Shown: positions 18,613 through 41,769 of the stretch, piece after piece | Layout of the letters: the number at the start of each line of letters is the position of its first letter | Position numbering within the stretch: position 1 is the first letter of the stretch | DNA from: Acidobacteriota bacterium | GTDB taxonomy: Bacteria > Acidobacteriota > Polarisedimenticolia > J045 | DNA: 41,769 nt | NCBI GenBank assembly: GCA_027021395.1 | Contig: JALUUK010000408.1 | Coordinates: 1-41,769, forward strand | Direction: 5' to 3' | The notes under the pieces: model-generated | Told to the model about the DNA's origin: nothing | Database searches by the model: none | What the model saw: only the letters and a program-made list of their open reading frames with translations | Made by a program: the position numbers and the translations under genes

Positions 18613-18630
18613 GGTTCTGTTCCTTCCCAG

Positions 18631-18822: not shown

Positions 18823-18832
18823 TGGAGGCGGA

Positions 18833-19231: not shown

Positions 19232-19256
19232 GGCCTGCTGTGCTTCCTTTGGGCAC

Positions 19257-19505: not shown

Positions 19506-19521
19506 CGTGGCTGATGCCACG

Positions 19522-21054
19522 TTACTTGGCGGCGCCGCTCAGCATCGCCGCCGCCGGCCTTTTGGCACGTGTCGGTCCGCGTGTGTTGTTTTCCGTCTTG
19601 CGTGTGTTCTCGGCGATCTCCTGGAGCGCCTTCTGCTGAGCTTGAGCCTGTCGGCGCATCTCGGCCAACTCCTCATCACTGGGTATGTAGGCCTGCGAAG
19701 TGCGGGCTCGCATGCGGACGGCCTGCGAATACGCATTGTCGCCGAATCCGAACCACAGGGCCTGTTCCGGCGTTGCGCCAAACCCGCGCGCGAGTTTGTA
19801 GCCAGCCATCTTGATGTAATACTGGGCCGGGGCCATTCCGATCTCTTTGGCGACGTTTTTCATTTCCTGCTCGTAAACGTCCGCCAAGTCGTCTTGGGCT
19901 GCGGAGGCGAGCCGGCCGCGCCCGGCGGCTCGACGGGCGGCGGCCGTCCGGCCGCTAAAGGCCTCGCGCACATCTTTGTCGAATTCGCCCGCTTTTTGTT
20001 TGGCGATCATCTCTTCGAATATATCGCTCCCCTTAATCATCTTGCGTGAGGCAGCAACGGTCCGATCGCCGAACAGCGTGGCCAAAATCGCCGCGCGGTC
20101 TTTTTCTGGGGCCTGCTCGTAACCTGCTCGGAGGCGTTTCAGGACTTCGCCGATCGATTCACCAACCAGGTCGACGTCTTCCGGTCGCAGACCGAGCTGT
20201 TGCAGAGCCTTGACTTTGGCCTTTTCCTTGCCGGCGGTCTGCAGCCTAAGAATGAAATTCCGCAAGCCGGTCGTGGATTCCTCGGCGGGGAAGGATTGCC
20301 GCGCGAGGGCCAGCATCGCGAGCTGCTCCTCGATGGACAGAGCCCCCTCAAACGTGGCGGCCTGCTTGGCGAATTGCTGCAGGTCGGCGACTTGGATGTT
20401 GGTCGACTTGAACAAGGCCTGTACGCCGCGGCCGACGCGACGCAGATTCTGCGCGTTGAGCTCCAACCCTTGCGACGACATGTAAGAGGCGATGGCCTGC
20501 GCCATTTCGCGGGGCTCGACGTCTTTGCCCGTCAGCGTCGAAGCCCCCATCAGTTTCAAGAACTCGCGCAAGGATTCACCAGTGGCCTCCTCGACGGAGA
20601 AACCGCTCGACACCAACTGCCTGGCAGCGGCCTCTGCGCTCACGACGGGCGTTTCGCTGATGGGGAGCTGCAGAGCGATCTGCTCGATGCGTTTCTGCGC
20701 CTTTTCGGCCTCCAGTCCCCGCAGTCCGGCCTGGACGCGGAATTTGCGGAAGGCCTCATCCATCGTCTTACCTGCTTCGACAGCTTCGTGCTGCCATTCC
20801 TGGCTGGCCTGCATGACCAGATGCAGCGCTCCGACCACACCGCCTGCTCCGATCAGCCCTTCGACGAGTGAGCGGGCCGAGCTGAGTGCGCCGGCGAACA
20901 GGCCACGCGTGGCTTGCTGAGTGCGCAAACCAGCTTGCGCCGTGCGCTGCAGGGCCAGATTCGTGCGCAATATCTGCTGCTGCGTGCGCTGGAAGTCCCG
21001 CAGCACGTCGCTCATGTCGGAGGTGATGGTAAAAACGGCCTCGCCGGCAGGCAT
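19522..21054 (-). CDS. Tail tape measure protein
   Basis: Ala/Gln-rich helical; TGLRNFILRL...KALQQLGL...LFG pattern of TP901-type tape measures; follows the chaperone. Confidence 0.85.
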   Translation of the reverse strand: MPAGEAVFTITSDMSDVLRDFQRTQQQILRTNLALQRTAQAGLRTQQATRGLFAGALSSARSLVEGLIGAGGVVGALHLVMQASQEWQHEAVEAGKTMDEAFRKFRVQAGLRGLEAEKAQKRIEQIALQLPISETPVVSAEAAARQLVSSGFSVEEATGESLREFLKLMGASTLTGKDVEPREMAQAIASYMSSQGLELNAQNLRRVGRGVQALFKSTNIQVADLQQFAKQAATFEGALSIEEQLAMLALARQSFPAEESTTGLRNFILRLQTAGKEKAKVKALQQLGLRPEDVDLVGESIGEVLKRLRAGYEQAPEKDRAAILATLFGDRTVAASRKMIKGSDIFEEMIAKQKAGEFDKDVREAFSGRTAAARRAAGRGRLASAAQDDLADVYEQEMKNVAKEIGMAPAQYYIKMAGYKLARGFGATPEQALWFGFGDNAYSQAVRMRARTSQAYIPSDEELAEMRRQAQAQQKALQEIAENTRKTENNTRGPTRAKRPAAAMLSGAAK

Positions 21055-21133
21055 TCCTTTCGTCCTAAGAAATGAAGGTCAAACCAGGTCGGTGCGTGAT
21101 CGCCGAGAAGCCCCCGTGACCACGCCAGGAAAA

Positions 21134-21856
21134 TCAAGTACCGGGGGTGCTGGCTTCCCCCTTTTTTTCGAGCTCGTCCTCCACTTGTTGAATCTCGGGC
21201 TGCTGAATCGTCGCCAGAGCCACGAGCGGCGCCGTCTCACTGTTGAGCAGCCTGAGATGGCTGACGACTTCAGGCGTAAGCCGGTAGTTGAATCGCAGTG
21301 CTTGGACCAAGTAATCCCACCAATCTGCCCACGGCAGGTCGATTCGGCCTTCGCCCAGCACCAAGCGATACAACTCCTGGCTCTTCCGCCAGAAGGACCG
21401 GTAATCCTCTTGCAATTCTTCGCGGACCTGACCGGTTTCCGGGTCGATCCGGAAGTCCCGGGGCAGCATGGCGGCCGCCGCGACGACCCAGCGGTTGCCA
21501 TCCCCGAGCCGGACCCAATAGCCGGAATGCGCGACCTGCAGGCCCGGGAGGGCGGCGGGACGCTGCAAGTCGCGCGGTCCGGGCGGCGACTGGCGCCAAA
21601 CCCCGACCCAATATCGGCCTCGCTCACCCGTCCCCGGCTGGGGCGCAGCGGGAATCCATTCTTGTTCGTCGGGAACGAACCCAAACCTCGGCTGCTCACC
21701 TTTGGGCTGCCAAAACACCATCGCGCCGGGTCCCCCGGTCGGTCCCTCGGAACACTCCACCCACTGCGCACCCTCCACGTGGTCGGCGAGGCCGGCTTCG
21801 ACCAGTAGCTGCGGGTTTTGCCCCCGTTTGTCGGGCAGGAAGATTTGATAGTGCAT
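21134..21856 (-). CDS. Tail assembly chaperone (gpG-like) with -1 frameshift site
   Basis: Between tail tube and tape measure; in-frame A_AAA_AAG near the 3' end; AAGGAG RBS. Confidence 0.7.
   Translation of the reverse strand: MHYQIFLPDKRGQNPQLLVEAGLADHVEGAQWVECSEGPTGGPGAMVFWQPKGEQPRFGFVPDEQEWIPAAPQPGTGERGRYWVGVWRQSPPGPRDLQRPAALPGLQVAHSGYWVRLGDGNRWVVAAAAMLPRDFRIDPETGQVREELQEDYRSFWRKSQELYRLVLGEGRIDLPWADWWDYLVQALRFNYRLTPEVVSHLRLLNSETAPLVALATIQQPEIQQVEDELEKKGEASTPGT
21161..21167 (-). promoter_or_regulatory. Slippery heptamer A AAA AAG (programmed -1 frameshift)
   Basis: Reads GAA AAA AAG GGG; the -1 frame stays open to TGA at 21012-21014. Confidence 0.7.
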
Positions 21857-21871
21857 CGAGTCTCCTTTTTG

Positions 21872-21979
21872 CTGCCGGCTTACGCCGGCGGGGTCTCTGG
21901 TTGGGAGACCTTCGGGCCGTCGGGTGGGACGGTCCGGAGACCGCCCCACAACAGGCAGGGTGGGCGGTGCCCACCCTAC
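21872..21979. repeat. Composite palindromic element
   Basis: CTGCCGGCTTACGCCGGCGG, one GGAGACC unit (21904-21952) and a GTAG REP containing the tail-tube stop codon. Confidence 0.9.
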
Positions 21980-22860
21980 GTGATGGCGACGCCGCTAGCG
22001 GCTGTTAACGTCTTGCCTTCGATCTGCAGCGACAAGGTCGCGGTGTCCCCTTCGTCGCCAGCCGCCGCGTCGATCAGTGTCAGTCCGGCGCCGAAGCTGA
22101 ACTTGCAGTGGCTCAAATTACCGTCCGCCTCGTACGTTCCCCCGTCCGCGCGCTTCCGGAAATACACCTCCAACGAAGTCAGGGCGGCTGCGATCTCGTG
22201 CAGGGAATCGAGCAACGTCAAATCGCGCGTCGTGATCGTGATCCGTGGTCGGAAAGGCGTTTCCAGGCTGGCAAAATCGGGATAAGGTCCGCCGCCACTG
22301 CGGGTCAAATTCAAACGCAGTCCGGTGTCAATATTCACGTCGGCCACTTCCCCGATCGTCGTGCCGTTGATTTTGACGGGACCGAGACCGAAGGCGCCGG
22401 CGAAGGACGACGCTGCCAGGGATTGATTCACATTCGCAGCCACCGGTGAGGTCAGCCCATCGCTGGAGAACAGGGCCAAATCGATGGACGCCTCCGCGTT
22501 GTCTGTCCCGCGAGCGCGGAAGCTACTGGCGATCGCCAGCCCATTGGTCGCTGTCAGGGTCAAGTGCGCTGTGCCGCTGGCCCAGGTCCCGCCGGGCTGG
22601 CGCTTGATCCAGGGGATCGTGATCGAACCGGCCGAGATGTAGAGTCCCGACGAGACGGGGATCCCGCTGATGACGCCAGCGATGTCCTCGGTATCGATCG
22701 TCACGCGTGGTTCGGCCCGCACCAGAGCTACCAGACTGTCGGCCGTGTCGCCGGGTGCGGCCGCCCGCAGTTCCTGGGCCGATGGGTTGTACCGAGTCCG
22801 CGTGATCTGGCGGATAGTGACCGATCCAATCGTCGGGTCGTAGATGCTAAATTGAGTCAT
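21976..22860 (-). CDS. Putative major tail (tube) protein
   Basis: Size, Thr/Ser/Gly-rich beta composition, position, AAGGAG RBS. Confidence 0.65.
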   Translation of the reverse strand: MTQFSIYDPTIGSVTIRQITRTRYNPSAQELRAAAPGDTADSLVALVRAEPRVTIDTEDIAGVISGIPVSSGLYISAGSITIPWIKRQPGGTWASGTAHLTLTATNGLAIASSFRARGTDNAEASIDLALFSSDGLTSPVAANVNQSLAASSFAGAFGLGPVKINGTTIGEVADVNIDTGLRLNLTRSGGGPYPDFASLETPFRPRITITTRDLTLLDSLHEIAAALTSLEVYFRKRADGGTYEADGNLSHCKFSFGAGLTLIDAAAGDEGDTATLSLQIEGKTLTAASGVAIT

Positions 22861-22871
22861 GGCTGGCTCCT

Positions 22872-23342
22872 TTACAGTCGCGCCACGGTCTGGCTCCGCC
22901 GGCGTTTCTGATTCGCCGGGTTATTGATCTCTCGAACGACGTAATCCCGCCGGAATTCGGCCAAGGCGAGGACTTCATCGCGTGTGATTGCGGTCAATTC
23001 TCGTTTGCGATCCGCGTTCAAGGGGAAATAGGCTCGCAACCGCAGTCGGCCCCGCTTGGGCGTCGCTGTCACGGTCCGATGGGCCGCGTCGAGAATATGG
23101 GTGCGCAGCCGGCCGGTGCGATAGAGCGGACGCCATTGCGGATAGCGTTTTTTGACCTGGCGAACGTACTTGCTGCTGCGGCGGAGGTACCCGTAGCGAG
23201 TGGCCGCGCCGCGGGCAAAATGCCGCGGCAGGTGGCGCTGCGCGTGCTGGTCGAGAGTCGCTCGCATCGAGTCGCGGGCGATGCGGTTCAGCGTCCGCTG
23301 CGACACCAGGCTGGTTTCGACTTTGATCGCGATCTGTGGCAT
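22872..23342 (-). CDS. Putative neck/tail-completion protein
   Basis: Basic; PLYRTGRLR resembles the LxxTGxLR motif of virion morphogenesis proteins. Confidence 0.6.
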   Translation of the reverse strand: MPQIAIKVETSLVSQRTLNRIARDSMRATLDQHAQRHLPRHFARGAATRYGYLRRSSKYVRQVKKRYPQWRPLYRTGRLRTHILDAAHRTVTATPKRGRLRLRAYFPLNADRKRELTAITRDEVLALAEFRRDYVVREINNPANQKRRRSQTVARL

Positions 23343-23355
23343 GGCGTGCGGCTCG

Positions 23356-23844
23356 TTACGGCGTCAGTACGAGGCCCGTGGTGTAGATTTCCATTTCTCC
23401 GGCCACATATTCGATGTTCGTGTCGCTGATCAGAACGTCTTCATTGGCGGTGAACTCGATGTCGGTGATCTCCAGGACTCCCGGCGTCCGGGCCATGACC
23501 AGACTGAGGATGTCGGCGATAATTTGCCCGGCCTGGTTCTGGAATCCGAGGATTTTTTCGTGGTCGCTGGCTGCCTGGTTGTCGGGCAGGAATTCCAGCA
23601 AGGCGGCCAGGCCCCCATTGGATTGGAAACTGTTGCCGTCGCGCGTCCAGCGGTAACTGCGTCCGAAGCCGAGCAGGATGCGAGGGAAGTCGCTGCCGCT
23701 GCTGGCGAGCAGCACGCGGGCCTTGGCGCTGGCCTCGTTCGGATTCTGTGCGTCGACAATCTGTTGCCAGGTGCTCGATTTGGCGAACGTGTCGCGCAAG
23801 TGATCGAAGATCGTGCTCAAGGGGCCGGTGGGTGTCACAGGCAT
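23356..23844 (-). CDS. Putative tail terminator/neck protein
   Basis: Position, acidic composition, AGGAG RBS. Confidence 0.5.
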   Translation of the reverse strand: MPVTPTGPLSTIFDHLRDTFAKSSTWQQIVDAQNPNEASAKARVLLASSGSDFPRILLGFGRSYRWTRDGNSFQSNGGLAALLEFLPDNQAASDHEKILGFQNQAGQIIADILSLVMARTPGVLEITDIEFTANEDVLISDTNIEYVAGEMEIYTTGLVLTP

Positions 23845-23853
23845 TGCGATCTC

Positions 23854-24201
23854 CTAGGGTCGGCGCGGCCGTCGCATGATCTCGCCTCGCATGATGAGCT
23901 TGACGCGTCTCCAGCGGCCATCCAGTTCGCCGATCGCCTCGACTTGCCAGACCTCGCCGGCGATCACCCACGTGTCCCGGAGTCCCACGGTTTGGGTCGC
24001 CGGAATCCACAAGTTGCCTCGGCGGACGTTGTCTCGGCCGTGGGTCGTATCCAGTCGGGGCTCGCCCTCGGCCCAGAGACAGCCAGCGACGGATTCGGCC
24101 TGCTGTGCGTTGCCATTCGGCCGGCGGGTGACCGTTCCGCCGAGGTACTCGGCGATCAGGTCCGAAGCGCCGGAGAAGAATTGGTCGTGCCGACTGCTCA
24201 T
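23854..24201 (-). CDS. Putative head-tail joining (FII-like) protein
   Basis: Follows the capsid gene; DTWVIAGEVWQV beta motif. Confidence 0.6.
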   Translation of the reverse strand: MSSRHDQFFSGASDLIAEYLGGTVTRRPNGNAQQAESVAGCLWAEGEPRLDTTHGRDNVRRGNLWIPATQTVGLRDTWVIAGEVWQVEAIGELDGRWRRVKLIMRGEIMRRPRRP

Positions 24202-24280
24202 GGCCTGCTGATGCGGCCTGCCGGCAGCATCCCGCCGCCGGCAGGCCATCCGAACGGGAAAAACGGAGGCAGATCGATGG

Positions 24281-25249
24281 TCACGTGATGTTCGACAGCA
24301 GATACCCGGCTTCGACGTAGAGCAGCTTCTCGTCTACGTCGTGGCGCACGCGGATCACGTCGCTCCGGATCGACTCCTCCCGGTACGACTCGATCACGCC
24401 ATTGGGCGAGCTACCGTCGCCAGCCCAATGGAAGGTGCGGCCCAAGCAGGGCTCCCGGAAGTCGTTCGTCCGGGCCACGCGGCAGACCAGGGCGTAACTA
24501 TCGGACCAGATCGAGGCCAGTGACGCACTCTGCCCTTCGTTGGCCGTGTTCTTGACGGCGTTCGCGACGATGATTTCGTCCAGGTCGAACGCCTGAGCCA
24601 GAGCCGCCTCCGTGATGGCACCAGCCCGTACGTCGACGAAACCTTGGTACTTCACGCGGTCGATGATCTGCGCGCAGTTGCGCAGGTGCCGAAACACCTT
24701 GCGGCTGATGACCAGGGCGTTGGGCCAGAGGCCCGAGTTGGACCAGACGGCGTTGACGGCGGTCTCGACGTCGTCCAGCGGCGTCGCGCTGGCGTGGGTG
24801 GACCACTTGGTGCCGACCGCGCTGGTCTTTCCGCTGAAGGTGCTGGTGCTGAACAGCAGGCTGGCGACCCGTTGCTCGGCGTTGCGCATCACCACGTCGA
24901 AGGCCCGGCGGGCCGCGATCAGCTCAGCGTCGAAATAGTTCGCATACATCGCGGCCTCGCGGTCGTCGACCGGTTCTTCGGCTCCGTACTCCTGACAGGC
25001 GAAGCTGTCGGTGGTGAACTTCCACTGACCGCGGCTATAGCCGGCCCCGGGGGCGCGCCGCACCTCGCGGTTCTGCAGCAACTGCTCAATCGGGATTTTG
25101 CCGAACACTCCGCTCTGGCTGGCGACTTCGACGACGGGGAAGACCCGGCTCGCGATGTAGCCGGCCCGCTGCATCTCCAGATCGAATTCTTCGAACGACT
25201 CGCTCAGATCAGGTCGGAGCGTTGCGAGAGACGAGGAAGGACTTGGCAT
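24281..25249 (-). CDS. Major capsid protein
   Basis: 322 aa after the decoration gene; YIASRVFPVVEV, RAPG, PNALVIS; AAGGAG RBS. Confidence 0.88.
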   Translation of the reverse strand: MPSPSSSLATLRPDLSESFEEFDLEMQRAGYIASRVFPVVEVASQSGVFGKIPIEQLLQNREVRRAPGAGYSRGQWKFTTDSFACQEYGAEEPVDDREAAMYANYFDAELIAARRAFDVVMRNAEQRVASLLFSTSTFSGKTSAVGTKWSTHASATPLDDVETAVNAVWSNSGLWPNALVISRKVFRHLRNCAQIIDRVKYQGFVDVRAGAITEAALAQAFDLDEIIVANAVKNTANEGQSASLASIWSDSYALVCRVARTNDFREPCLGRTFHWAGDGSSPNGVIESYREESIRSDVIRVRHDVDEKLLYVEAGYLLSNIT

Positions 25250-25306
25250 CAGTGATTCTCCTTTTTGAAACCTCAGCGATTACGCGTCGGATCGACCAAC
25301 CAGGGA

Positions 25307-25666
25307 TCAGGCGTAGATCGGCTGAATCTCGATGATGTCGCCGTCGGCGCTGGCGGCCTCCAGCGCGACGCCTCGGAAGTGCGAGCCGGCGGCTTTGGTC
25401 GCGCTGACCTTGCCGTTAGCGGCCGTGTAGACGTAGGCGCCCTGGCTGATCGCACCAGCGGCGATAACTTTTTGCGTGGGCGAGTTGAGCAGCCGGACGG
25501 GGATCACGTCGCCGTCGGCGAAAGCCTGCCGCTCGGCGACGCCGATGTCTGCATCGTAGATTCCCGCGACGGCCAGCTTTCCGCTGGTGATCTTCACACG
25601 GGCGTACTGGCTGATGGCCCCGCCCGCTTCGAACGTGACACAGAAGCTATCGTGAGTTTGGGACAT
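25307..25666 (-). CDS. Capsid decoration/cement protein (DUF2190-like)
   Basis: AGAISQGAYVY..ANGKV...GVALEAASADGDIIEI. Confidence 0.8.
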   Translation of the reverse strand: MSQTHDSFCVTFEAGGAISQYARVKITSGKLAVAGIYDADIGVAERQAFADGDVIPVRLLNSPTQKVIAAGAISQGAYVYTAANGKVSATKAAGSHFRGVALEAASADGDIIEIQPIYA

Positions 25667-25759
25667 GTCGCACTCCTTCAATTGGTGCAGGCTTTGGCGA
25701 TCTCGATGGTTCTCGGCGGCGTCGACCTCGGCCGGCGTCAGCCGGCCGGCCGCCGAGGC

Positions 25760-26221
25760 TCAGTTGGCGTTGGCTTCGGCGATCAAGGCCTCCCGAAGCT
25801 CGGGGTTCTCTCGGGCCACGAGCTGGACGGCTTTGAATCGGGGCAGCCCTTCGGCGACCTTCGCGCGGACCAGCTCGCGCCATTGGTCTCGGACCGATCC
25901 GGAGCCGGCGGCGATAGAATTGGGCGTGCCATCGGCCAGAGCTTCTGTCCCGGGCGAGGCGGTGGCTTTCAAAGTCTCCAGCTCGGCTCGGAGTTTCTCG
26001 GCTGCGGCGCGCGCTTCGTCGCGCTCCGCGCGAGCGGTCTGCAGATCCGTCTGGAGTTCTTCCAGCCGCAGAGCTTGCCAAGCCAGGAACTCTTCGCGAG
26101 CCTTTTCGACGCTCAGCCCTCGCTCGATCCACTCCAGCAAAAGTTGGCTGTCGGCGCCCGGGCACGCCCCTTTCAGCTCGTTCAGCGTCGCGGCCCGGGG
26201 TTCGTTTCGTTCGTCACTCAC
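25760..26221 (-). CDS. Nested in-frame scaffold protein (lambda Nu3-like)
   Basis: Internal GAGGAGG RBS followed by GTG (VSDERNEP...); coiled coil. Confidence 0.6.
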   Translation of the reverse strand: MSDERNEPRAATLNELKGACPGADSQLLLEWIERGLSVEKAREEFLAWQALRLEELQTDLQTARAERDEARAAAEKLRAELETLKATASPGTEALADGTPNSIAAGSGSVRDQWRELVRAKVAEGLPRFKAVQLVARENPELREALIAEANAN

Positions 26222-27058
26222 CGTCGAACCTCCTCGATCAGATTGCGAGTCCACAAACCGTTGGAACGACGTCAGCACGGACTCGTAGGTGCCGACCTCG
26301 TCGATCAGTCCCAGCCGGCGGGCTTCGGCCGCCAGCCAGACGCGGCCGTCCGCCAAACGGTTCAATTGCTGCTCGGACACATTGCGTCCCCGGCGCACGG
26401 CCGCCAAGAAAAACTCGTTGTGTTCTTCGACCAAGCGCTGCCACTCCGCGAGCTGCTCGTCCGTGATCTCGGTGCCCGGCACCCCCGCGCCCTTGAAGCG
26501 GCCCGTCGTCAACAGGTGCACCTTGATGCCGGCGTCTTCAAACAGACCCGTCCAGTCCCAGACGACGGCATAAGTGCCGATCGAGCCGATCAGAGCCGGT
26601 TCGTTGGCCGCAATCCGATCGGCCTGGCTGGCGATCCAGTAGGCGGCGGAGGCCCCGAGGTCCTCGATGTAGGCCCAGACAGGCTTCCACTGTGCGGCGG
26701 CGGCGACGTCATCCGCGAGTTCCTTGGTCCCGTCGAACGCGCCACCGGGCGAGCTGATCCGCAGCAGAATGCCAGCGACCTGGTCGTCGGCGAGCGCTCG
26801 CCGCAGCCGGTCTCGCACGTCCACGGTCGACGTCCCGCGCCAGGGTTTCGCTTTTGCCAGCGGTCCTCGCAGTTCGAGGATCGCGATGGAGCCGGCACGC
26901 TCGAATGCGCCCGCACCGTCATCCTGCTGGGCCCGGTCGGACCAGAGGCGATCCCCTCTCAGACACGCCTCGATGGCCAACCGGGCCTGCTGCGGTGCGA
27001 CGGCCCAGACGGTTTCCGCCGCCCCGGCCGGTGCTTCAGTCCATCTCGTCTGCGGCAT
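25760..27058 (-). CDS. S49 (SppA/lambda gpC-like) head maturation protease with C-terminal scaffold
   Basis: ISSPGG, GASAAYWIASQAD, IGSIG, VRRGR, ADGRVWLAAEARRLGLIDEV. Confidence 0.92.
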   Translation of the reverse strand: MPQTRWTEAPAGAAETVWAVAPQQARLAIEACLRGDRLWSDRAQQDDGAGAFERAGSIAILELRGPLAKAKPWRGTSTVDVRDRLRRALADDQVAGILLRISSPGGAFDGTKELADDVAAAAQWKPVWAYIEDLGASAAYWIASQADRIAANEPALIGSIGTYAVVWDWTGLFEDAGIKVHLLTTGRFKGAGVPGTEITDEQLAEWQRLVEEHNEFFLAAVRRGRNVSEQQLNRLADGRVWLAAEARRLGLIDEVGTYESVLTSFQRFVDSQSDRGGSTVSDERNEPRAATLNELKGACPGADSQLLLEWIERGLSVEKAREEFLAWQALRLEELQTDLQTARAERDEARAAAEKLRAELETLKATASPGTEALADGTPNSIAAGSGSVRDQWRELVRAKVAEGLPRFKAVQLVARENPELREALIAEANAN

Positions 27059-28619
27059 CGTTTACTCCGTTTGGGTTGGCTTCGTCGCCGGAAAGCGCCA
27101 ATCGGATTCCCTGCGCCGTGGGCGTCGGGATAAGGTCACGCCAATGGACATCGACGCCAAGCTCGTCGGACAACTGGCGTGCGGCTTCAGCCGCCAGCCG
27201 AATGGCAAACGCTCGGTCTTCGACGATCTCGCGCGCCAGAACGACCCAATCGGTGCCCCGCTTCGCGGCGAAGCGCCGGGGACTGGTCATACCGTTGGCC
27301 AGCTCCAGCAAGTTCGCCGTGGCGTCGTGCACCGGCTGGATGTACGGCCAACCGACGGGATTCCATCGGTGACGCATCAGGTCGGCGACGCTTTTCGTAC
27401 GCGCGAATGCCTGCAGCTCGGGATCATTCAGCAGCCATTGGCGGACTTTCCAGCGATAGACCTCGGCGTGGAACTGGCTGGCAAACCAAGACTGGATCTT
27501 GCCATACGTGGCGCGGGCTTGATCGATGACGTTGCGATAGCTGCTGAAGTTGGCCTCGCGCGCATCCAAGAGCAGCACGATCAGCGGCAGGTCCAGATTG
27601 ACGGCCAGGTAAGTCAGTAACAGGCGAACGTGCTCGAAGTACGGTTCGCTCGGGATGCTCGGTGAGAACCCGCTGAGCTTCTCGCCCGGCTCGCCTTGCA
27701 GGATCATTCCTGGATGCAGGCTGGTCTGAGTGAAGCCTGTGCCGTCCGCCCAGGTCGAGCTGGTCTGCTCGCCCAGTTCCGAGCCGTCGCTGCTGGCCAT
27801 CGAGCCCAATTCCCGTTCGCGGAAGAACGCCACACAGGCCGACACCTGGGCCTTGACGAGCATGGCGAAATCCAAGTCGTCGCGCATGCCCAGGACGGTC
27901 GTAACCGGTGCCAGGGCCGTGATGCCGCGTGTCTGGCTGAATCGCTCGGGATTGTAGACGTGAAAGACCAGGCGATTGCCATCGGCGTCGACAGCCGGGA
28001 CGCGGCGGACGTCGGCGACGCGCACCTGCTCGTTCGGGTCGACCGGTTCCCGCGTGAAGGTGTACGCGACGGGCCGGGCTCGGTTATCAAGAATCACGCC
28101 GCAGACGCCGCGATCGCGACGGGCGCGGTCGGGCGTGCGGCAGCGGTGGGCTTCGAGCGTCTGCAAGGTTCCGTCCCGTAACGGCAAGGCGAAAAAGTCG
28201 CCGTCGATGACGACCCGGGCCAGGCCCAGATCGGCCATCTGCTCGAAGGTCAGTTTGCCGGCCGCGTGGCAAACGCTCGGCTGCGAAGACCACTCCTGCC
28301 ATCGCGAGCGCAGATGCTCGTCGACTTCCGGGTCCCCGGTGTCGGGATCGAGCTGCATCCCGCCCACGTTCACGTTGCACACGAGCCGGCGGACTGCCTG
28401 ACGGATCAGAGGTTCGTTCCGCTCGAAGTGCCGCGCCAGCTCGACCATGGTCAGGAACCAACGCTGGTTCCGAATGTGGTAATCCGCGCTCGCGCCGTTC
28501 ACAGGAAGAGAGACCTGCCGCAAGAAGCGGTTGGACCGGTAGCGAGCGGCGTCATATTCCGCCCGGACTTCGGCCATTTGGCGGCAGATGGACGGTGGTC
28601 GTGGTCGTCGGTCAGGCAT
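27036..28619 (-). CDS. Portal protein, lambda family
   Basis: ARHFERN, PVAY, SQTRGIT, NFSSYR, WPYIQPVHD; TGATG coupling. Confidence 0.92.
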   Translation of the reverse strand: MPDRRPRPPSICRQMAEVRAEYDAARYRSNRFLRQVSLPVNGASADYHIRNQRWFLTMVELARHFERNEPLIRQAVRRLVCNVNVGGMQLDPDTGDPEVDEHLRSRWQEWSSQPSVCHAAGKLTFEQMADLGLARVVIDGDFFALPLRDGTLQTLEAHRCRTPDRARRDRGVCGVILDNRARPVAYTFTREPVDPNEQVRVADVRRVPAVDADGNRLVFHVYNPERFSQTRGITALAPVTTVLGMRDDLDFAMLVKAQVSACVAFFRERELGSMASSDGSELGEQTSSTWADGTGFTQTSLHPGMILQGEPGEKLSGFSPSIPSEPYFEHVRLLLTYLAVNLDLPLIVLLLDAREANFSSYRNVIDQARATYGKIQSWFASQFHAEVYRWKVRQWLLNDPELQAFARTKSVADLMRHRWNPVGWPYIQPVHDATANLLELANGMTSPRRFAAKRGTDWVVLAREIVEDRAFAIRLAAEAARQLSDELGVDVHWRDLIPTPTAQGIRLALSGDEANPNGVNDAADEMD

Positions 28620-28918
28620 CAGTCGCGAAACGTCTGAAAGGAGGCATGGATGACACGGCGCGAGCGCGACGCGGCGGTCGTATCGTGATTGCGGAGCCAT
28701 TCTTTGGCGGCCAAAAGCTCCTTGCGGATCAGGTCGGGGCTGAGAGCGACCTGATTTCCCCCCTTGCCGGTCAAACGAGGCATCATGCGCAGCAATAGCC
28801 GGCAGGCGGTGATGAAGACCTTCGCCTTCGCCGGCGAGTTGTCCTCCTCGTAGGAGGCATTGTCGGCGTAGGCCGCTTCGATGTCCGCCAAACTGCTCTG
28901 AGAATTCAGCGTGGCCAT
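28619..28918 (-). CDS. gpW-like head completion protein
   Basis: Small ORF between TerL and portal, as in lambda. Confidence 0.5.
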   Translation of the reverse strand: MATLNSQSSLADIEAAYADNASYEEDNSPAKAKVFITACRLLLRMMPRLTGKGGNQVALSPDLIRKELLAAKEWLRNHDTTAASRSRRVIHASFQTFRD

Positions 28919-29020
28919 ACCGTTAAGTTCGGGTCAGCCCCGACTGCGCGCGAAGGGCAGTTCAGGCGAACCGAACGCGGTTTTGTCGGATCGCTCGGGC
29001 GCGACCGGACGGCTCGGGCG

Positions 29021-29308
29021 CTAGATCCGGCGGCTGACTTGCTCGAAAATCCACCGCACGACATCGTTCGCATGCACAACGGGCCGACCGTCCGCAAAGG
29101 CGGCGCCGGAAGCGAGCAGACCTGCGTAGACCCGCCGAAAGGCGTCCAAGGAGGGGCCGTTGTCGATCTTCAGGTCGATTCGACCGAGCGACTGCGCCAC
29201 GTACGTCCGCTGCTCCGGCTCCGCGACCGGCAAGGCCAGCTCCACCTCGCTGTTGCGGACGGCTCCGCCGGTCGACGTCTTCTTGGATTGCGTCTTTTTC
29301 GCCATCAC
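29021..29308 (-). CDS. Hypothetical protein
   Basis: AGGAG RBS directly after the terL stop. Confidence 0.65.
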   Translation of the reverse strand: MMAKKTQSKKTSTGGAVRNSEVELALPVAEPEQRTYVAQSLGRIDLKIDNGPSLDAFRRVYAGLLASGAAFADGRPVVHANDVVRWIFEQVSRRI

Positions 29309-29313
29309 TGCTC

Positions 29314-31287
29314 CTATCGATCCGTAGCCAAAAAAGGCCGACCATCTGGGGTCGTGAGCGTGCGAGGAACCACCCGCTGGCGGCGTCTGCGTGGGACCGG
29401 CTTACGCGACATCTCGCGGTTCCAATCCCGGCCGTTGTTCTTGTAGTGCCAGGCCATCACGACTGCATAGCGCAAGGCGTCGCGAAACTCGTTGTCCCCC
29501 CGCTTCCGCCAGTGACCGTTTTCGTCCAAATAGTCGTTGCAGAGCTGCTGCGCGAAGTCGATGCCCGTGACCGGCTGGCCGTGAAAGACTTCGGCCGGCA
29601 CGCTGAACCAATCCCGATCCGTGCGCTTCACCAGGCCGGTGATGCGGTCCTCGATCCATTGCTGCGTGCGCGTCGTGTTGGGCTCGATCAGGTCGTACTG
29701 GCCGATCTTGATCCGGGCTGCCACGAGCTTCGGCGGCACCCCGACCCGCTGCATCGCCGGCCGGTACATCTCAATAAAGTTCCCGGCAAAGAAAGGCCGG
29801 CTTGGGTCCGTCGAGGAGCCTTTCACGGGCCAACAATTGGGCAACTCACGGCAGAACGAATAAACCGCTTCGGTGAAGGCGCCCGAGTCGATTCCGATCC
29901 GGACCGGCCGCAGCGCAGGACCGCCATCCGCATGGGGGTACTCCCAGCGGGCGCAGGTGCGCCGCATCTCGTCCTTGCTCCACGCGATTCCGTAGTCGAC
30001 CAGTTGGGACCGAGCGTACTGTCCCCAGGCGATGACCACCCAGTAGAAGATCAGCTCCTCGCCGATCCGGCCCACGTCCGCCCCGACTGTCAGGAACCGC
30101 GACCACTCCGGACAGACTCCCAGCGGTTCATCCACGGCCAGGCGTTCCGCCAACTCGTGAGGCTCGACCGACCGCGGCGCTGGGTCCCACGGCTCGGCGA
30201 GCGTACCGGTGACGAACTCGCGCAACGAGTCGGCGTTGGCCTTGGCCGCGAGAAACTCCGCGACCAATGCGCCCCAGCCGGGGATGACCAAACTGTATAG
30301 CGACGAAATCCCGTCAAAGACGACGATGTCCGGACCGATTTTCGGCCGCCCCAGCACGCGCCCCGTCTTGGCCAACCGCTGGCCTTCCGCGATCCACTTG
30401 CCGGCACGGATCATGCCCGGACGATCCGCATCTGTGATCTTGCAGCCGCTCTGACAGCGATAATAGGCCGTGGCAACGGCTTCTGTAGCGCCGGCCTTGT
30501 CGTCCCACTTCACGCCCGGGCCTTTACCGCGATCGCCCCAAACCAGGCGCTGGTATTTCCCGCAGTGCGGACATCGCACGAAGAAATACCGCCGCTGCGC
30601 GGCTGCCGAGTCGGCGAAGCTGCTGATCGCGCAATCGCCGACTGCTTCCGGCTTGCCCTCCAGGATGTACTTGCTGTCATACGGAAACAGCCTTCCTCGC
30701 TGCAGGAATCGCCGGATCGCGTTCGGCGACCAAAGCCCGGCTTCGTTGACGACCCCGTAGCAGGCCGGATACCCCGCCAGACTGGCGCGGCTGCCAGCGT
30801 ACGCCTTGCGAATCAACCCTGTCTCCAGGCGGACGCCTAGTTTCAGGTTCTGGCGGTGCGGCGGCAAAAGGATCGGCTGGCCGGCTCGCAGCCGATGCGC
30901 CATCGGGATCACCAAGTTCTGCACCAGATCATCGACCGAGGCTTCGTCCGCCGACGCGACCGCACAAGGCCGCCCCGTCGTGACCGCCCAATACAGTAGA
31001 CAGGCGACGGCGGTCAGAGTCTTCGCCGACCGAGTCGCCCAGCGTAGCACGATTACGCGCACCATGGGATCGTCCACGGCCTCCAACACCCCGCGCACAT
31101 GAGGGAACATCGCAGCATCGAACGGCCCCGGCGTCTCGCACACGTCCGGGATAACGACATGCGCGGGAACCCACTCGGCGCACAGCACCCTTGGCGGCGG
31201 TCGCCATACCCGCCAACTGGCACGCAGCAGCTCGTTTGTCGCGACCCTCCTCTGCTGCTCACGAGACACTATCCTTCGTCTGGCCAC
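29314..31287 (-). CDS. Terminase large subunit (lambda GpA family)
   Basis: PGPF..FPH, RSAKT Walker A-like, FVRCPHCG, TLAEPW, TVGADV, IDSG, PVKG, NEFRDALRYA. Confidence 0.92.
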   Translation of the reverse strand: MARRRIVSREQQRRVATNELLRASWRVWRPPPRVLCAEWVPAHVVIPDVCETPGPFDAAMFPHVRGVLEAVDDPMVRVIVLRWATRSAKTLTAVACLLYWAVTTGRPCAVASADEASVDDLVQNLVIPMAHRLRAGQPILLPPHRQNLKLGVRLETGLIRKAYAGSRASLAGYPACYGVVNEAGLWSPNAIRRFLQRGRLFPYDSKYILEGKPEAVGDCAISSFADSAAAQRRYFFVRCPHCGKYQRLVWGDRGKGPGVKWDDKAGATEAVATAYYRCQSGCKITDADRPGMIRAGKWIAEGQRLAKTGRVLGRPKIGPDIVVFDGISSLYSLVIPGWGALVAEFLAAKANADSLREFVTGTLAEPWDPAPRSVEPHELAERLAVDEPLGVCPEWSRFLTVGADVGRIGEELIFYWVVIAWGQYARSQLVDYGIAWSKDEMRRTCARWEYPHADGGPALRPVRIGIDSGAFTEAVYSFCRELPNCWPVKGSSTDPSRPFFAGNFIEMYRPAMQRVGVPPKLVAARIKIGQYDLIEPNTTRTQQWIEDRITGLVKRTDRDWFSVPAEVFHGQPVTGIDFAQQLCNDYLDENGHWRKRGDNEFRDALRYAVVMAWHYKNNGRDWNREMSRKPVPRRRRQRVVPRTLTTPDGRPFLATDR

Positions 31288-31780
31288 CGTCGGTCAGCGC
31301 ACTTTCCACCAGGCTGGCAAACTCGTCGAGAATCCTCGCCACTCGCTCCTCGGCCGCCGCAAGGAACTCTTGTCGCTGCTTGCGGGGCACCAGTGCGGCG
31401 AGTTCACGCGGCACCCGCCGCATCAGACCATCGCGAGCAACGGCAATTGCCCCTGTGATCGCGTCGAGCACGACGTCGCGATCCACCAACCGTCCACGCG
31501 CTACTTGTTCTTCTCGCTCCTTTCGACGCGCGTCCGCCAGCTTGATCCGCGCTTCACTGATCGCTTTCAGCCTTGCCGCTCGCTCTAGGTTCGGATCCCC
31601 CCTTCCACTTTTGAAGAGCCGCTTAAACTCCAGCAGATCCGGGATCGGATACCCGCGTGAGCAATCGGGAAAGGCCGGATGGCGGCTCCAATTGGTGATA
31701 GTTCTGACGCTGACACCGAGGCGTGCAGCCGCTTCAGCCTTGGTTCGGGCGACGTCGACCTTCTGCCCGCGCTTGGCCAT
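31259..31780 (-). CDS. Terminase small subunit (Nu1-like)
   Basis: N-terminal HTH (AAARLGVSVRTITNW), coiled coil, GRLVDRD; overlaps terL. Confidence 0.85.
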   Translation of the reverse strand: MAKRGQKVDVARTKAEAAARLGVSVRTITNWSRHPAFPDCSRGYPIPDLLEFKRLFKSGRGDPNLERAARLKAISEARIKLADARRKEREEQVARGRLVDRDVVLDAITGAIAVARDGLMRRVPRELAALVPRKQRQEFLAAAEERVARILDEFASLVESALTDGGQTKDSVS

Positions 31781-31842
31781 GGGAAGGTAGGCACCTCCGT
31801 GAGCTCGTATCCGACACAAAAACCGCAACCAACCGACTGCGC

Positions 31843-36376: not shown

Positions 36377-36622
36377 GAGGAAAAACTGGGCGCCGCGACG
36401 AGGCGGCGCCAGCGATTAAGGGATGCGGCAGGATGGCCAATCGGGACGGAGCGGGACAGATCGGGGTGGTCGGCCCCAGGGAGGTGAGGAGCGATGCGGG
36501 CCGGCGGCCCGGGCCTCTGAGCCGGAGGGTCGACGATGTATGCTGCATCCTTTCCGCCATTACACATCTCAGTCATTCTCCAATGGGGACAGCCGGAACA
36601 GTCGAGCACGGAGGGGCCGGTG

Positions 36623-37714
36623 ATGGCAGACCAGGGCGGGCCCGCCCCACGGTTGCGAGTGTTTCCCCCTACGGGGGCTTCTTCCCCCTACGGGATGGGC
36701 AATCCCGTAGGGGAAAACGATTCCGCCGGCTACTGGCCGCTGCGCCGCTGCTGGGAGGAATCGCTCTCAAAGAAAATCGAGCTCTCGCCGGCGACGCTGA
36801 AGCACTACCGCCGGCTCATCAACCAGTGGGAAGCTTACTGGCGCAAGCGCGGCTGCGAGCGTCCGCTCGGCCCGGACGTGCGCGAGATCCAGCCGAAGGA
36901 CTTCAACGATTTCGCTCGGGCCCAGGGGTGGACAGCGAAGTCCACCTGGTCCACGCGGCGCGATTATTTCGGGAAGATTCTGAAGTCGGTTGCCCGGGCG
37001 AGCAAATCGTGTCCGATCGGGCTGACGGAAGGCTGGCTCTTCGAGCAGCCGCCATTCCTCGCCCCGCTGCCGCCGGGGCTGGCGCCAAAGCCCGAGACGC
37101 CCGAAGCCCTCACCGTGGACCAATTCGCCCGGCTGCTGGAATGCTGCGACGGCGCTCGCTGGCCCTGGAGACGAGCGATCGTGCCGGCTCCGGTGCTGTG
37201 GCGTGCTTATCTGAGCTTCCTCTGGGTCTACGGGTCGCGCAAGGACGCGGCATTGCGGCTCACTTGGCGGGAGGTCGATCTGGAGCGCGAGCGGCTGGAT
37301 TACGTGCCGGACAAGAAGGCGGATCGGGTGTCGGTCGCCCTTCACACACTCTTGCTGCCGCTGCTGCATTTTCTCCGCGATCGATCGCCGGACCGCGTCT
37401 TCCCGTTTCCCAACACGGCGCGGACGGCCGCCCAGGAGAATTTCAATCCACAGCTCAAGGCGATTTTTCGGGCGGCCGGCCTGGTAGAGCATACCAGCCA
37501 CTTCTTTCGCGTCTGCTGCGTCACCAACTGGCAGACGCTGGTCGGGCGGCGGACTCGCTTCGTGACCGGACATCGGCCGCAGGGCGTGCAGGAAAAGCAC
37601 TACGACAGTCGAAGCGCTCGCCAGGTGATCGCCGAGCGAATGGCCGAGTATCCGATGCCGCCCGCCGAGACGCTCTGGGCTGGCTTACCGTTGGAATACC
37701 TTCCTGGAGCCTGA
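36623..37714 (+). CDS. Tyrosine integrase/recombinase (start may be 36536)
   Basis: YGSR (R), KK, SHFFR (HxxR), TGH and KHY catalytic residues; SAM-like N-domain. Confidence 0.88.
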   Translation: MADQGGPAPRLRVFPPTGASSPYGMGNPVGENDSAGYWPLRRCWEESLSKKIELSPATLKHYRRLINQWEAYWRKRGCERPLGPDVREIQPKDFNDFARAQGWTAKSTWSTRRDYFGKILKSVARASKSCPIGLTEGWLFEQPPFLAPLPPGLAPKPETPEALTVDQFARLLECCDGARWPWRRAIVPAPVLWRAYLSFLWVYGSRKDAALRLTWREVDLERERLDYVPDKKADRVSVALHTLLLPLLHFLRDRSPDRVFPFPNTARTAAQENFNPQLKAIFRAAGLVEHTSHFFRVCCVTNWQTLVGRRTRFVTGHRPQGVQEKHYDSRSARQVIAERMAEYPMPPAETLWAGLPLEYLPGA

Positions 37715-38367: not shown

Positions 38368-38910
38368 ATGCGGGATTTCACCGACTACGAGCTTTGGGTG
38401 GTCCGCCAAGCTGAGGGAATCGTCCGTATGCTGCAGGAGGCGGCTCAAATCGCACAGGCCACCATACCGCCCCTTGGCAAGACCTGCAGCCGTCGCGAAC
38501 TGGAGCTGTACCGGGAGATCATCGACGCCCGCCGCGCCGCCATAGAAGCAAGAGACCGCCTTGGCCAAGCGATCGACCTATATCGTACGCCGGCGATGGC
38601 CGGACCTTTTCCGAGAAAGGAGGAGCACGCAATGGGAGAGACCGTTCGTTATTCGATAGGTGTGGATAGCCCAATCACTCCACAGGAACCTCTGCCGGCG
38701 CTGCCGGAGATTCCTCGCGGCGCCTTGGTGGTGGTCGAGGGGTGGGCGCCGATCTGGCGGTACGCGATGGCGCTTCACCGGCTCCACGGGTCGCCGGCCG
38801 GTGCCATCGCGGTCTATGACCCGCGTCTCGGAGCCGTCGTTGTCCAGAGCCACACGCCCGCATACGCGGAAGGGGACGTGCTGGACTTCCCGGAGGATAG
38901 GGCGCAATGA
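38368..38910 (+). CDS. Helical N-terminal region in frame with a Csx3 domain (fusion or read-through ORF)
   Basis: GAGG RBS; no stop before the internal Csx3 start. Confidence 0.5.
   Translation: MRDFTDYELWVVRQAEGIVRMLQEAAQIAQATIPPLGKTCSRRELELYREIIDARRAAIEARDRLGQAIDLYRTPAMAGPFPRKEEHAMGETVRYSIGVDSPITPQEPLPALPEIPRGALVVVEGWAPIWRYAMALHRLHGSPAGAIAVYDPRLGAVVVQSHTPAYAEGDVLDFPEDRAQ
38632..38910 (+). CDS. csx3: Csx3/Crn3 CRISPR-associated cyclic oligoadenylate ring nuclease
   Basis: VVVEGWAPIWRYAMALHRLHGSPAGAIAVYDPRLGAVVVQSH..EGDV matches the Csx3 signature; own AGGAGGAG RBS. Confidence 0.88.
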   Translation: MGETVRYSIGVDSPITPQEPLPALPEIPRGALVVVEGWAPIWRYAMALHRLHGSPAGAIAVYDPRLGAVVVQSHTPAYAEGDVLDFPEDRAQ

Positions 38911-40348: not shown

Positions 40349-41242
40349 GTGTGCGCGGTGCAACTGGAATTTGACTTCGATCCCAAACTCGAATCAGCAG
40401 CGAAAAACGATGAGCGACTGGAGGCCGTCGGAGTCTCAGCAATGCGGCGAGCCGTGATCTGGCTGTTCCAACTCCACCCGGAAGCCAAGCGCGATGGCAC
40501 GTTGATCCGGCTCGATCTGAGCTTCATAAAGGCATCCCAGTGGCTGCGCAACCAGGCTCGGTGGCGAAACTTGCGCTGTGCCGACACGAACGTGCGACGC
40601 GCCTGCGTGTTCTGGCAGCAATTGCACTGCGTCGCGATCCTGAAGCGACCACGAGTCCTGCTGCTGGATGTGGCGCGACTGAGCGAGTGGCTCTATCGCG
40701 AACAAGAAGCGGTGGAACGAGCCGTCTCGTCGGCTCTCAATTTCGCCGGCGACGGAGCCCCCCCGAAAACAAATCCGACCCGGTCCGACCCGATCCGACC
40801 CGCGTCGACCCTCAGTGAGAGAGTGAGTGAAGAAAAAACTCATTCACTCACTCACTCTGTGGGCGGGGTGGATCGGTCCGATCGGACGGATCAGACGGAT
40901 CGGACAGATCATCCCTCGGCACCGGCCGGGGCGTCGGTGGTGCTGCCTCGGCTGCCGGTGGAGGTGTGGGAGCCCGGCCGAGACGATCGGTCGCTGTATC
41001 GGCTGCTGCGGGCGTATTGGACCGAGCACGGGCCGGCCCTCGAGGCGGCCGGCATCGACGCCGACACGTTCACCGGCGCCGTCCTGGCCGCTCGGGCCCA
41101 GCCACGCACCGACCCGCAGCGTTACGCCGAGCGGTGCCTGGAGCTCGGCCTGACGGAGAACTGGCTCGCCCAGGGGCGCGCCTGGCGCCGCCGGCAGAAG
41201 ATTCTGTTCTCTCGGCCTATCACACATGGAGCGGTGCAATGA
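40349..41242 (+). CDS. Putative replication initiator containing origin-like repeats
   Basis: AAGGAGG RBS; two domains joined by a repeat-encoded linker; early-region position (function is inference). Confidence 0.55.
   Translation: MCAVQLEFDFDPKLESAAKNDERLEAVGVSAMRRAVIWLFQLHPEAKRDGTLIRLDLSFIKASQWLRNQARWRNLRCADTNVRRACVFWQQLHCVAILKRPRVLLLDVARLSEWLYREQEAVERAVSSALNFAGDGAPPKTNPTRSDPIRPASTLSERVSEEKTHSLTHSVGGVDRSDRTDQTDRTDHPSAPAGASVVLPRLPVEVWEPGRDDRSLYRLLRAYWTEHGPALEAAGIDADTFTGAVLAARAQPRTDPQRYAERCLELGLTENWLAQGRAWRRRQKILFSRPITHGAVQ
40771..40910 (+). other. Putative replication origin
   Basis: 4 x CGACC at 10-nt phase; AT-rich inverted repeat GAGTGAGTGAA...TTCACTCACTC; 5 x GATC at 9-nt phase. Confidence 0.5.
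40891..41196 (+). repeat. Imperfect direct repeat, copy 2 of 1..306
   Basis: Offset of 40,890 bp; a second homology block at about 41313-41547 matches about 675-909. Confidence 0.95.
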
Positions 41243-41577
41243 CACTGAAGCAAGGCGAACCGCCGGCGTCAGCCGGCGGGTGTAAAGCGGCTGAACAGTC
41301 AGACGTGCCAAACCCGCTGGAGCGGGCCCTATTCCTCTGCGGGATACTGTGCGCCCTGCTGCGGAGACATCCGCAAGGGCGGGTCCTATTCATCGCCCGC
41401 CAAGCGGAACAGCACACCTGGGTCGTCATTTGCCGGCGGCGGGACTGGCCGCGAGCGATCTGGCAGCTCGCTCGTTGGGCCTTCGACCGCTCGCTCCCGC
41501 TCCGCCCCCGCCACGCCCTCGGTCTGGCCGTGCGGCTCACCGTGCAGCTTTTTAGTGCGAGGCATAGCCATGATTGA
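41239..41577 (+). CDS. Hypothetical phage protein; paralog of 637..954
   Basis: ATGA coupling; shared PLERA...HTWVVICRRRDWPRAIWQLARWAFDR. Confidence 0.75.
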   Translation: MTLKQGEPPASAGGCKAAEQSDVPNPLERALFLCGILCALLRRHPQGRVLFIARQAEQHTWVVICRRRDWPRAIWQLARWAFDRSLPLRPRHALGLAVRLTVQLFSARHSHD

Positions 41578-41769
41578 AGTCCCAACAGCAACACAGCTTT
41601 TTGCACTCGCTCGCGGCGTTAACGTCCGATTCGGCGACCACCGCTGCTATTACTGCGGCGGAGCGTGTGCCGAGGAATGTGTGCCGGCCAGCGAGCATGT
41701 GAAGGCGAGCTTCACAAGTCGGGACACGGTTTGCGGCGGGGATCGGGTCTGCGACGGGTGTATTTCGGC
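41570..41769 (+). CDS. 3'-truncated ORF resembling type IV CRISPR Csf1 (Cas8-like) N-terminal Zn-finger region
   Basis: Manual translation MIEVPTATQLFALARGVNVRFGDHRCYYCGGAC...VKASFTSRDTVCGGDRVCDGCIS; CxxCG...FT...VCxxC pattern. Confidence 0.5.
   Translation, partial: MIEVPTATQLFALARGVNVRFGDHRCYYCGGACAEECVPASEHVKASFTSRDTVCGGDRVCDGCIS

Follow-up and report, generated by a model that had tools for sequence, protein, structure and literature searches.

The 41,769-nucleotide (nt) stretch of Acidobacteriota DNA analysed here (contig JALUUK010000408.1, hereafter the window) breaks off within a gene that very likely encodes the N-terminus of Csf1, the Cas8-like large subunit in CRISPR-Cas systems of type IV. 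This gene is part of the cargo of a lambda-like temperate phage, in whose early region it marks a mosaic junction, and it probably heads an array-less operon of type IV-B character that would comprise csf1, cas11, csf2/cas7, csf3/cas5 and a gene for an accessory enzyme. On the + strand, the open reading frame (ORF) begins at ATG 41570, with GTG 41555 as an alternative in-frame start, and is still open at the window end, 41769, so that 66 codons are visible. In its product, residues 26-30 read C-Y-Y-C-G, residues 45-49 K-A-S-F-T and residues 60-64 V-C-D-G-C, and the CxxC pairs at 26-29 and 61-64 make up the zinc-ribbon. The preceding ORF, which encodes 112 amino acids (aa), ends with TGA 41575-41577 and thus overlaps the csf1 start by 8 nt (ATGATTGA); it is itself overlapped over 4 nt by an ORF of 297 aa, and csf1 is translationally coupled to both of these phage backbone genes. 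An initial annotation of this DNA had pointed to the edge ORF, to its coupling with the upstream gene and to three motifs, and had called the product Csf1-like. The ORF, the overlap, a Shine-Dalgarno element (GAGG; Table 1) and the motifs CYYCG, KASFT and VCDGC are all present, and the call is borne out by PADLOC profiles, by hhalign, by conserved alignment columns and by relatives that are recognised through both profile and fold.

When compared with PADLOC models, the 66-residue fragment matched typeIV_Cas8 (PDLC01574; E 7.5e-8, residues 6-65 on positions 3-56 of a 213-position model) and Csf1_0_IV (PDLC01721; E 3e-6). Alignment by hhalign to A3, an alignment of 113 family members described below, gave 99.4% probability (E 5.5e-22) over 63 columns. 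At all ten N-terminal columns with at least 80% agreement among the 113 members the fragment keeps the majority residue (L10, G22, C26, C29, G30, C33, F48, C61, G63 and C64), and the columns of C26, C29, C61 and C64 hold a cysteine in 111-112 of the 113. Since GC content by codon position in the fragment (0.62/0.55/0.64, from a small sample of 66 codons) is flatter than in the backbone genes, where third-position GC content (GC3) is 0.73-0.85, with 0.78-0.85 in the phage core genes, the coding status of the ORF is proven by homology and not by composition alone; the lower GC3 fits recent acquisition of the gene.

Full-length relatives place the fragment in the Csf1 family

A word search with the fragment for longer proteins gave one match among 13 candidates, a protein of 247 aa (P0002) that is 64% identical over 97% of the fragment. 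We used P0002, the fragment and a homologue from a Peptococcaceae metagenome-assembled genome (locus L001) to seed a profile search of 1.84 billion representatives, which returned 544 proteins at E≤1e-3, of which 119 reached E≤1e-30. Closest to the fragment among the matches listed is P0028, a representative of 263 aa that is 66.7% identical over 63 residues. For A3, we took from the 150 listed matches the 124 with a length of 210-320 aa, left out the 12 weakest and added the L001 protein to the remaining 112. Both PDLC01574 and PDLC01721 match all 113 rows at E≤1e-5, and the family consensus has the core PPxPPF...SDSGQKHL. P0002 itself matches PDLC01574 at E 1.1e-55, and the NCBIfam profile for Csf1, TIGR03114, recovers P0002 (E 2e-11) as well as the L001 protein (E 6.5e-11). 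When P0002 was compared with plasmids by tblastn, matches were found in 10 records, nine of them under genes annotated csf1, and the same query found no match in the phage collection. P0028 has 53 relatives with E≤1e-10; eight of these bear a source name, four being 'CRISPR type IV-associated protein Csf1' and four hypothetical. PADLOC and JGI names recognise the family, as does a Pfam accession from precomputed data, PF27781.1; that accession did not appear in the local Pfam scan of P0002.

Structural comparisons point the same way. Searching the PDB sequences with P0002 alone by phmmer gave a weak match to a Csf1 chain (8rc3_G, E 0.046); with the A3 profile, the three top PDB matches were all type IV-A Csf1 chains (8rc3_G at 3.3e-7, 9n3y_A at 1.3e-5 and 7xfz_A at 1.5e-5), and the alignment to 8rc3_G covers CxxC...F...CxxC. 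An AlphaFold model of P0028 (predicted local distance difference test 96.9, predicted template modelling score 0.89) had credible Foldseek matches to Csf1/Cas8 chains only, namely 7xg1_A (1.2e-5), 8rc3_G (1.9e-4) and 8rc2_G (0.027), the next match being already at E 0.35. P0002 and P0028, the two relatives with 64-67% identity to the fragment, are therefore Csf1 by profile, fold and source name.

A FastTree phylogeny with 117 Csf1 sequences, for which the Azospira protein served as root, places the 113 members of A3 together and apart from three Csf1 proteins that are linked to cysH-like genes (those of Skermania phage SPI1, Rhodovastum and Thermococcus), with a support of 0.87 at the node that adds Rhodovastum to the 113. 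P0028 and the L001 Csf1 fall into one subclade of 45 leaves, with a weak support of 0.67. A separate observation concerns P0093, a metagenomic protein of 435 aa that is 60.6% identical to the fragment: only its first ~150 residues match Csf1 profiles, the remaining 280 residues match no family, and the protein is either a fusion or a frameshifted call.

csf1 lies at a mosaic junction where two phage genome copies cease to match

The window contains related copies of one phage early region (1-930 and 40891-41568) at a spacing of 40.6-40.9 kb. Positions 1-300 are 97% identical to 40891-41190 and positions 674-930 are 84% identical to 41312-41568; with identities in the range 84-97%, a simple circular overlap is ruled out, and the copies represent either two related prophages in tandem or a pair of variants of a single ~41-kb phage genome that assembly has joined. 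The likeness between them ends at the csf1 start (Table 1), and the matching slot of the left copy holds a 75-aa ORF, ORFs of 170, 396, 105 and 268 aa without a family, a serine recombinase and a staphylococcal-nuclease (SNase)-like nuclease, which is why we assign csf1 to the cargo of a mosaic junction. The initial annotation had likewise suggested that the right copy may carry a Cas effector in a slot where the left copy has different genes, and both the breakpoint at csf1 and the Cas-free left slot agree with this placement. The 112-aa gene counts as backbone and is no part of the Cas cargo, since a homologous gene (ORF 637-954, whose 105-aa product shows 75% aa identity) occurs in the left copy, which lacks csf1. 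Neither the 112-aa nor the 297-aa protein had any match in Pfam, PHROG or PADLOC.

The repeated backbone is that of a tailed phage, as a complete structural and packaging module shows. This module, seen in the left copy, contains the small and large (gpA-type) terminase subunits, a lambda-family portal, an S49 protease, the major head protein, a tape measure protein and a tail fibre. The right copy shares the integrase-side early region with the copy bearing this module, and csf1 is thus carried by a mobile element. The genes of the right copy run from a MarR-like gene and a tyrosine integrase to Csx3, a CsrA homologue and the 297-aa and 112-aa genes. In the phage collection the phage has no close relative, its terminase being at most 29% identical to any entry. 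No att site was identified for the phage copies, no tRNA or Rfam family was found for the window, and a search of 35500-41769 found no sigma-70-like promoter.

Table 1. Coordinates of csf1, its neighbours and the phage features in the window.
Feature	Position	Strand	Basis or remark
Matching slot, left copy	955..5651	+	Other cargo, no Cas gene
Serine recombinase, end region of left cargo slot	4047-4988	+	Pfam/PHROG scans
SNase-like nuclease, left slot	5190-5651	+	Pfam/PHROG scans
Structural/packaging module, left copy	5759..31828	-	Pfam and PHROG
Tyrosine integrase, head of right copy	36536..37714	+	phrog_1 E 1.7e-16; PF00589 E 1.8e-4, below cut-off
Csx3/Crn3-family protein, 180 aa, Csx3 domain 99-172	38368..38910	+	PF09620, PADLOC, 3wzi_A
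297-aa backbone gene, no family	40349..41242	+	Heads the coupled row 297 aa - 112 aa - csf1
112-aa gene, no family	41239..41577	+	Phage backbone gene; left-copy homologue
Likeness breakpoint between the two phage copies	41540..41569	.	Left-copy identity stops at csf1 start
Shine-Dalgarno-like GAGG	41559..41562	+	7 nt 5' of ATG 41570; direct sequence reading
csf1 5' end, very likely (type IV Cas8-like large subunit; zinc-ribbon N-terminal domain)	41570..41769	+	PADLOC, hhalign, conserved columns

Gene order in related loci suggests an array-less operon

We examined 241 pattern matches in a scan of genome contigs, two of which were confirmed. One of them, L002 10001-10108 from Pirellulales, turned out to be a chance match within a sulfatase-like ORF of the opposite strand and was rejected as a Csf1 relative. 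The other, L001, is the only relative of the same clade with a visible context. PADLOC models recognise in it a row of csf1 (1.8e-66, PDLC01574), cas11 (1.7e-25), csf2 (2.3e-89) and csf3 (2e-35), which is followed at 12829-15461 by two genes for B12-binding radical S-adenosylmethionine (radical-SAM) enzymes with CX3CX2C at residues 158 and 168, and all of these genes overlap or abut. There is no CRISPR array in the 20 kb of L001, no helicase gene adjoins the row, and a tblastn search with a single cysH-like query gave no match to such a gene. The neighbours are phage-like, with a homologue of a minor tail protein, a lysin-like gene (M23/peptidoglycan-binding) and a sigma factor.

A complete type IV-B row was seen in the cultured actinophage SPI1 of Skermania (KR011061.1; L003 3840-7473), in which Orf40-44 correspond to csf1, cas11, csf2 and csf3, as recognised by PADLOC, and a gene with a phosphoadenosine-phosphosulfate (PAPS) reductase domain (Orf44; PF01507, E 1e-8), although all five are annotated 'hypothetical protein'. 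On a Rhodovastum plasmid, homologues of Csf1 (hhalign 97.2%) and Cas7 are encoded along with a protein annotated as PAPS reductase, and a Thermococcus plasmid resembles this layout by annotation only. In L001, SPI1 and the Rhodovastum plasmid the row starts with csf1 and csf2 follows two genes later. Because L001 and the other array-less loci examined have that layout, we infer that the edge gene probably stands at the head of such an operon as well.

Evidence against this reading and alternative explanations

Several results weigh against the edge gene being a csf1 that heads a type IV-B-like operon with a role in phage biology. As regards its identity, Pfam found in the fragment only FYVE (E 0.016; 15.7 bits against a cut-off of 27.8) and TIGR03114 found nothing at E≤10, 66 residues being too short for Pfam and NCBIfam profiles. 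The full-length relatives reach only 42-44 bits with TIGR03114 against a curated cut-off of 140 and hence, by the NCBI rule, do not count as equivalogs of the reference Csf1 from type IV-A. As regards the operon, csf1 is seen here as its first 66 codons only, with the window edge beyond, and tblastn with 14 queries (the L001 and SPI1 proteins, P0002 and P0028, covering csf1, cas11, csf2, csf3, cysH-like, radical-SAM and sigma genes) found nothing but the edge ORF in the 41.8-kb window, all other matches having E>0.1, so that no relative of csf2, csf3, cas11, cysH or the radical-SAM genes was detected anywhere in it. This includes csf2 (Cas7), the gene that according to PMC8175902 now defines type IV. 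Moreover, the best-fitting PADLOC models are labelled 'CAS-IV-A', and for this reason the subtype cannot be read off the profile name. The Csf1 of L001 shares no more than 42% identity with the fragment and falls with P0028 into a weakly supported subclade; its neighbourhood therefore serves as a family-level guide and not as an orthologous one. Finally, for counter-defence or inter-element competition as the role of the system we draw solely on published hypotheses.

The FYVE match and the silence of NCBIfam on the fragment would fit an unrelated zinc-finger protein (HNH, FYVE-like or a zinc-ribbon regulator) whose CxxC...CxxC likeness to Csf1 arose by chance. We regard this as highly improbable: the match is below its cut-off, the agreement with Csf1 reaches past the cysteines to L10, G22, G30, F48 and G63, the E-values with the typeIV_Cas8 model and A3 are far lower, and the closest relatives are full-length Csf1 by profile and fold. 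A match to HNH or another zinc-finger family, which the initial annotation had named as the outcome that would speak against Csf1, was thus not obtained, FYVE being the sole non-Cas match.

The 'CAS-IV-A' labels, together with the solved type IV-A Csf1 chains as closest structures and a downstream side that lies outside the window from codon 66 onwards, would also be compatible with a csf1 of another type IV subtype (IV-A, IV-D or IV-E-like), in which case a helicase, Cas6 and an array would follow beyond the window and the system would silence competing plasmids or phages in an RNA-guided, helicase-dependent manner. Several findings make this quite unlikely. Since the Cas11 models that fit L001 carry the same 'CAS-IV-A' label, we read it as a legacy label, and Cas11 is listed in PMC7038947 among the features of type IV-B, not of type IV-A. 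The type IV-A locus of Azospira has csf4 and csf5 upstream of csf1, whereas here the genes upstream are familyless phage backbone genes that are also present in the csf1-less copy, with no dinG, csf5 or array among them, and no array-like repeat was found in the window as a whole. In addition, P0002 is only 26-27% identical to type IV-A Csf1, and L001 combines cas11 with a row that has no helicase beside it and no array.

A further alternative is that csf1 is solitary or decaying, either as a recombination remnant at the mosaic junction or as a stand-alone zinc-ribbon protein derived from Csf1, and has no working complex. The 66 visible codons and the GC3 of 0.64, which is below that of the backbone genes and fits recent acquisition, would allow for this, as would P0093, where the N-terminal half of Csf1 is joined to unrelated sequence and which indicates that broken or fused forms exist. 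Nevertheless, we consider this alternative unlikely, given that the fragment keeps each of the ten N-terminal residues with strong conservation, that the Shine-Dalgarno element and the coupling to the upstream gene are present and that csf1 is followed by effector genes in the confirmed loci of L001, SPI1 and Rhodovastum. The preferred reading remains that of a csf1 at the head of an array-less, type IV-B-like operon.

A Csx3-family gene in the same early region

The same early region of the right copy contains a gene for a protein of the Csx3/Crn3 ring nuclease family, which was recognised by PF09620 (E 9.1e-22; 77.2 bits against a cut-off of 21) and by the PADLOC Csx3 model (E 1.6e-24). It matches Csx3 of Archaeoglobus fulgidus (AF_1864; 3wzi_A) at E 1.8e-12 and keeps the equivalents of H57, H60, D69, R71 and H80, residues whose roles are given in PMC7371418; the numbering is our own mapping onto 3wzi_A and allows for a 6-residue tag. 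Judged by these residues, the window protein is catalytically intact and probably active. As a phage-borne nuclease of cyclic tetra-adenylate (cA4), it would act like viral AcrIII-1 but differs from it in fold.

The initial annotation had placed csf1 next to a ring nuclease. The Csx3 gene does lie in the same early region, but the two are not neighbours: it lies upstream of csf1, with its end at 38910 and a distance of 2.66 kb that six ORFs occupy, and the genes in between are separated by gaps of 264, 118 and 84 nt. Because of these intervening ORFs and gaps, Csx3 is not adjacent to csf1 and need not be co-transcribed with it. In contrast to the A. fulgidus protein, the window Csx3 has an additional N-terminus and no adjoining type III locus; in Pfam and PHROG scans of the 51 window ORFs, Csx3 was the only Cas-related family found. 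A tblastn search with the window Csx3 against 50,697 phage records returned nothing, and a survey from 2025, which covered 28,114 phage genomes, reports AcrIII-1, Csx20 and Csx16, with Crn3 not among the families named in the accessible part of that source (PMC12409355).

Two further observations on this gene concern its 5' part. The N-terminal extension of 87-98 residues has no family match, and AAGGAGGAG stands before an internal ATG at 38631, from which a short, archaeal-like form of Csx3 may also be made.

Proposed mechanism and role

Published work on type IV-A and type IV-B complexes suggests how the products of such an operon would act together. Csf3 and several Csf2 subunits would coat a small RNA, Cas11 would form the minor filament of the complex, and Csf1 would sit at the Csf3 end with its zinc-finger domain facing the nucleic acid. 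In type IV-A, the zinc-finger N-terminal domain of Cas8 (Csf1) and a loop of Cas5 are described as the interface for the protospacer-adjacent motif (PMC11519345), and it is this domain that the window fragment covers. The complex would possess neither a nuclease nor an array of its own, and for this reason it might either soak up the CRISPR RNAs (crRNAs) of the host or use these to bind competitors without cutting by a nuclease. Hypotheses in print for type IV-B include crRNA sponging, borrowing of host crRNAs and modification of nucleic acids with the help of the accessory enzyme, and the Mycobacterium type IV-B complex is reported to bind heterogeneous RNA and not the co-expressed crRNA (PMC7937560; PMC8175902). 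The role of array-less type IV-B systems is described as still open (PMC8175902).

For virus-borne type IV-B systems, counter-defence or competition between elements has already been proposed (PMC10848311; 10.1101/2023.08.02.551345), and one or other of these is plausible as the most likely role of the csf1 system in the phage. The CRISPR-subversion toolkit suggested in the initial annotation is likewise a hypothesis, and for virus-borne type IV-B one that these sources had put forward before. Taken singly, counter-defence is a tentative suggestion, and competition with other elements a more doubtful one.

Other features of the window

Three genes before csf1, the phage early region encodes an RNA-binding regulator of the CsrA family (40046-40264; PF02599, 2.4e-14). 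The backbone holds both kinds of recombinase, a serine recombinase in the left copy and a tyrosine integrase in the right one (Table 1). Among the tail genes there are four structured intergenic repeats of ~130-150 nt (12090-12245, 18626-18828, 19337-19492 and 21826-21981), the first half of which consists of two hairpins (z -4.7 for 18626-18733) and the end of which is a GGGTGGGC...GCCCACCC hairpin; they have no Rfam match. The same GGGTGGGC/GCCCACCC stem recurs at 9284-9339, where two tandem palindromic units of 28 nt (z -3.5) lie between genes on the - strand and are probably a terminator or an element resembling repetitive extragenic palindromes. Unusual passengers among the distal tail-region genes are a trypsin-like peptidase (10200-11363) and a family-2 glycosyltransferase (12950-14662).

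Relation to known type IV systems and significance

The type IV-B system of Mycobacterium sp. JS623 is described as csf1, cas11, csf2 and csf3 with a cysH-like gene (PMC7937560; PMC8175902; PMC7038947). The window locus shares with type IV-B a gene of the Csf1 family that would be the first of its row and carriage by a mobile element; up to the window edge, no array, helicase or Cas6 is seen. It differs in that its Csf1, of which only 66 codons are visible, belongs to a clade of 113 representatives that stands apart from the three cysH-linked Csf1 proteins compared, and in that the one visible locus of this clade, L001, has two B12 radical-SAM genes in the place of cysH. No cysH-like gene was found in the window by Pfam scan or tblastn. 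Type IV-A Csf1 (7XG1 of P. aeruginosa and 8RC3 of P. oleovorans; PMC11519345) has a fold like that of the P0028 model (Foldseek probability 1.00, template modelling score 0.41-0.50) and a zinc-finger N-terminal domain that aligns motif for motif with the A3 profile, but identity in the structural alignment is 14-17%, neither dinG nor csf5 lies upstream in the window, no array is seen there, and TIGR03114 scores remain far below the cut-off.

Type IV loci are described on plasmids and sometimes in prophages (PMC7038947), and type IV-B systems have been reported from tailed viruses, namely the Fuxivirus of Bathyarchaeia (PMC10848311) and a Methanoperedens virus (10.1101/2023.08.02.551345); together with SPI1 they carry a type IV gene in a tailed virus just as the window does. 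These three systems have a cysH-like gene. The host of the window element is a high-GC bacterium. Since virus-borne type IV-B is already in print, the window csf1 adds one more example to a known kind; with prophage and virus systems reported and 66 codons in view the finding is modest on its own. That the window Csf1 clade (113 members examined, 544 at E≤1e-3) marks an undescribed type IV-B variant in which CasCysH is replaced by other chemistry seems improbable to us, and this idea draws on one locus, L001. PMC9723712, as far as its text was accessible, does not link type IV csf2 with radical SAM.

If the variant were real, the prophage would combine two anti-CRISPR arms in one early region, a Cas filament and Csx3. 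The first would be an RNA-coating Cas filament with a pair of radical-SAM enzymes that modify RNA or nucleotides, and the second a cA4 degrader of a family that is absent from the phage hits given in the accessible part of the 2025 survey (PMC12409355). The window also offers a natural comparison, as two related copies of a temperate phage share a common backbone and one of them carries the csf1 cargo at a clean mosaic junction. Should the host or the phages be culturable, lysogens of both variants would constitute a near-isogenic pair with which the benefit of the system to the phage could be probed.

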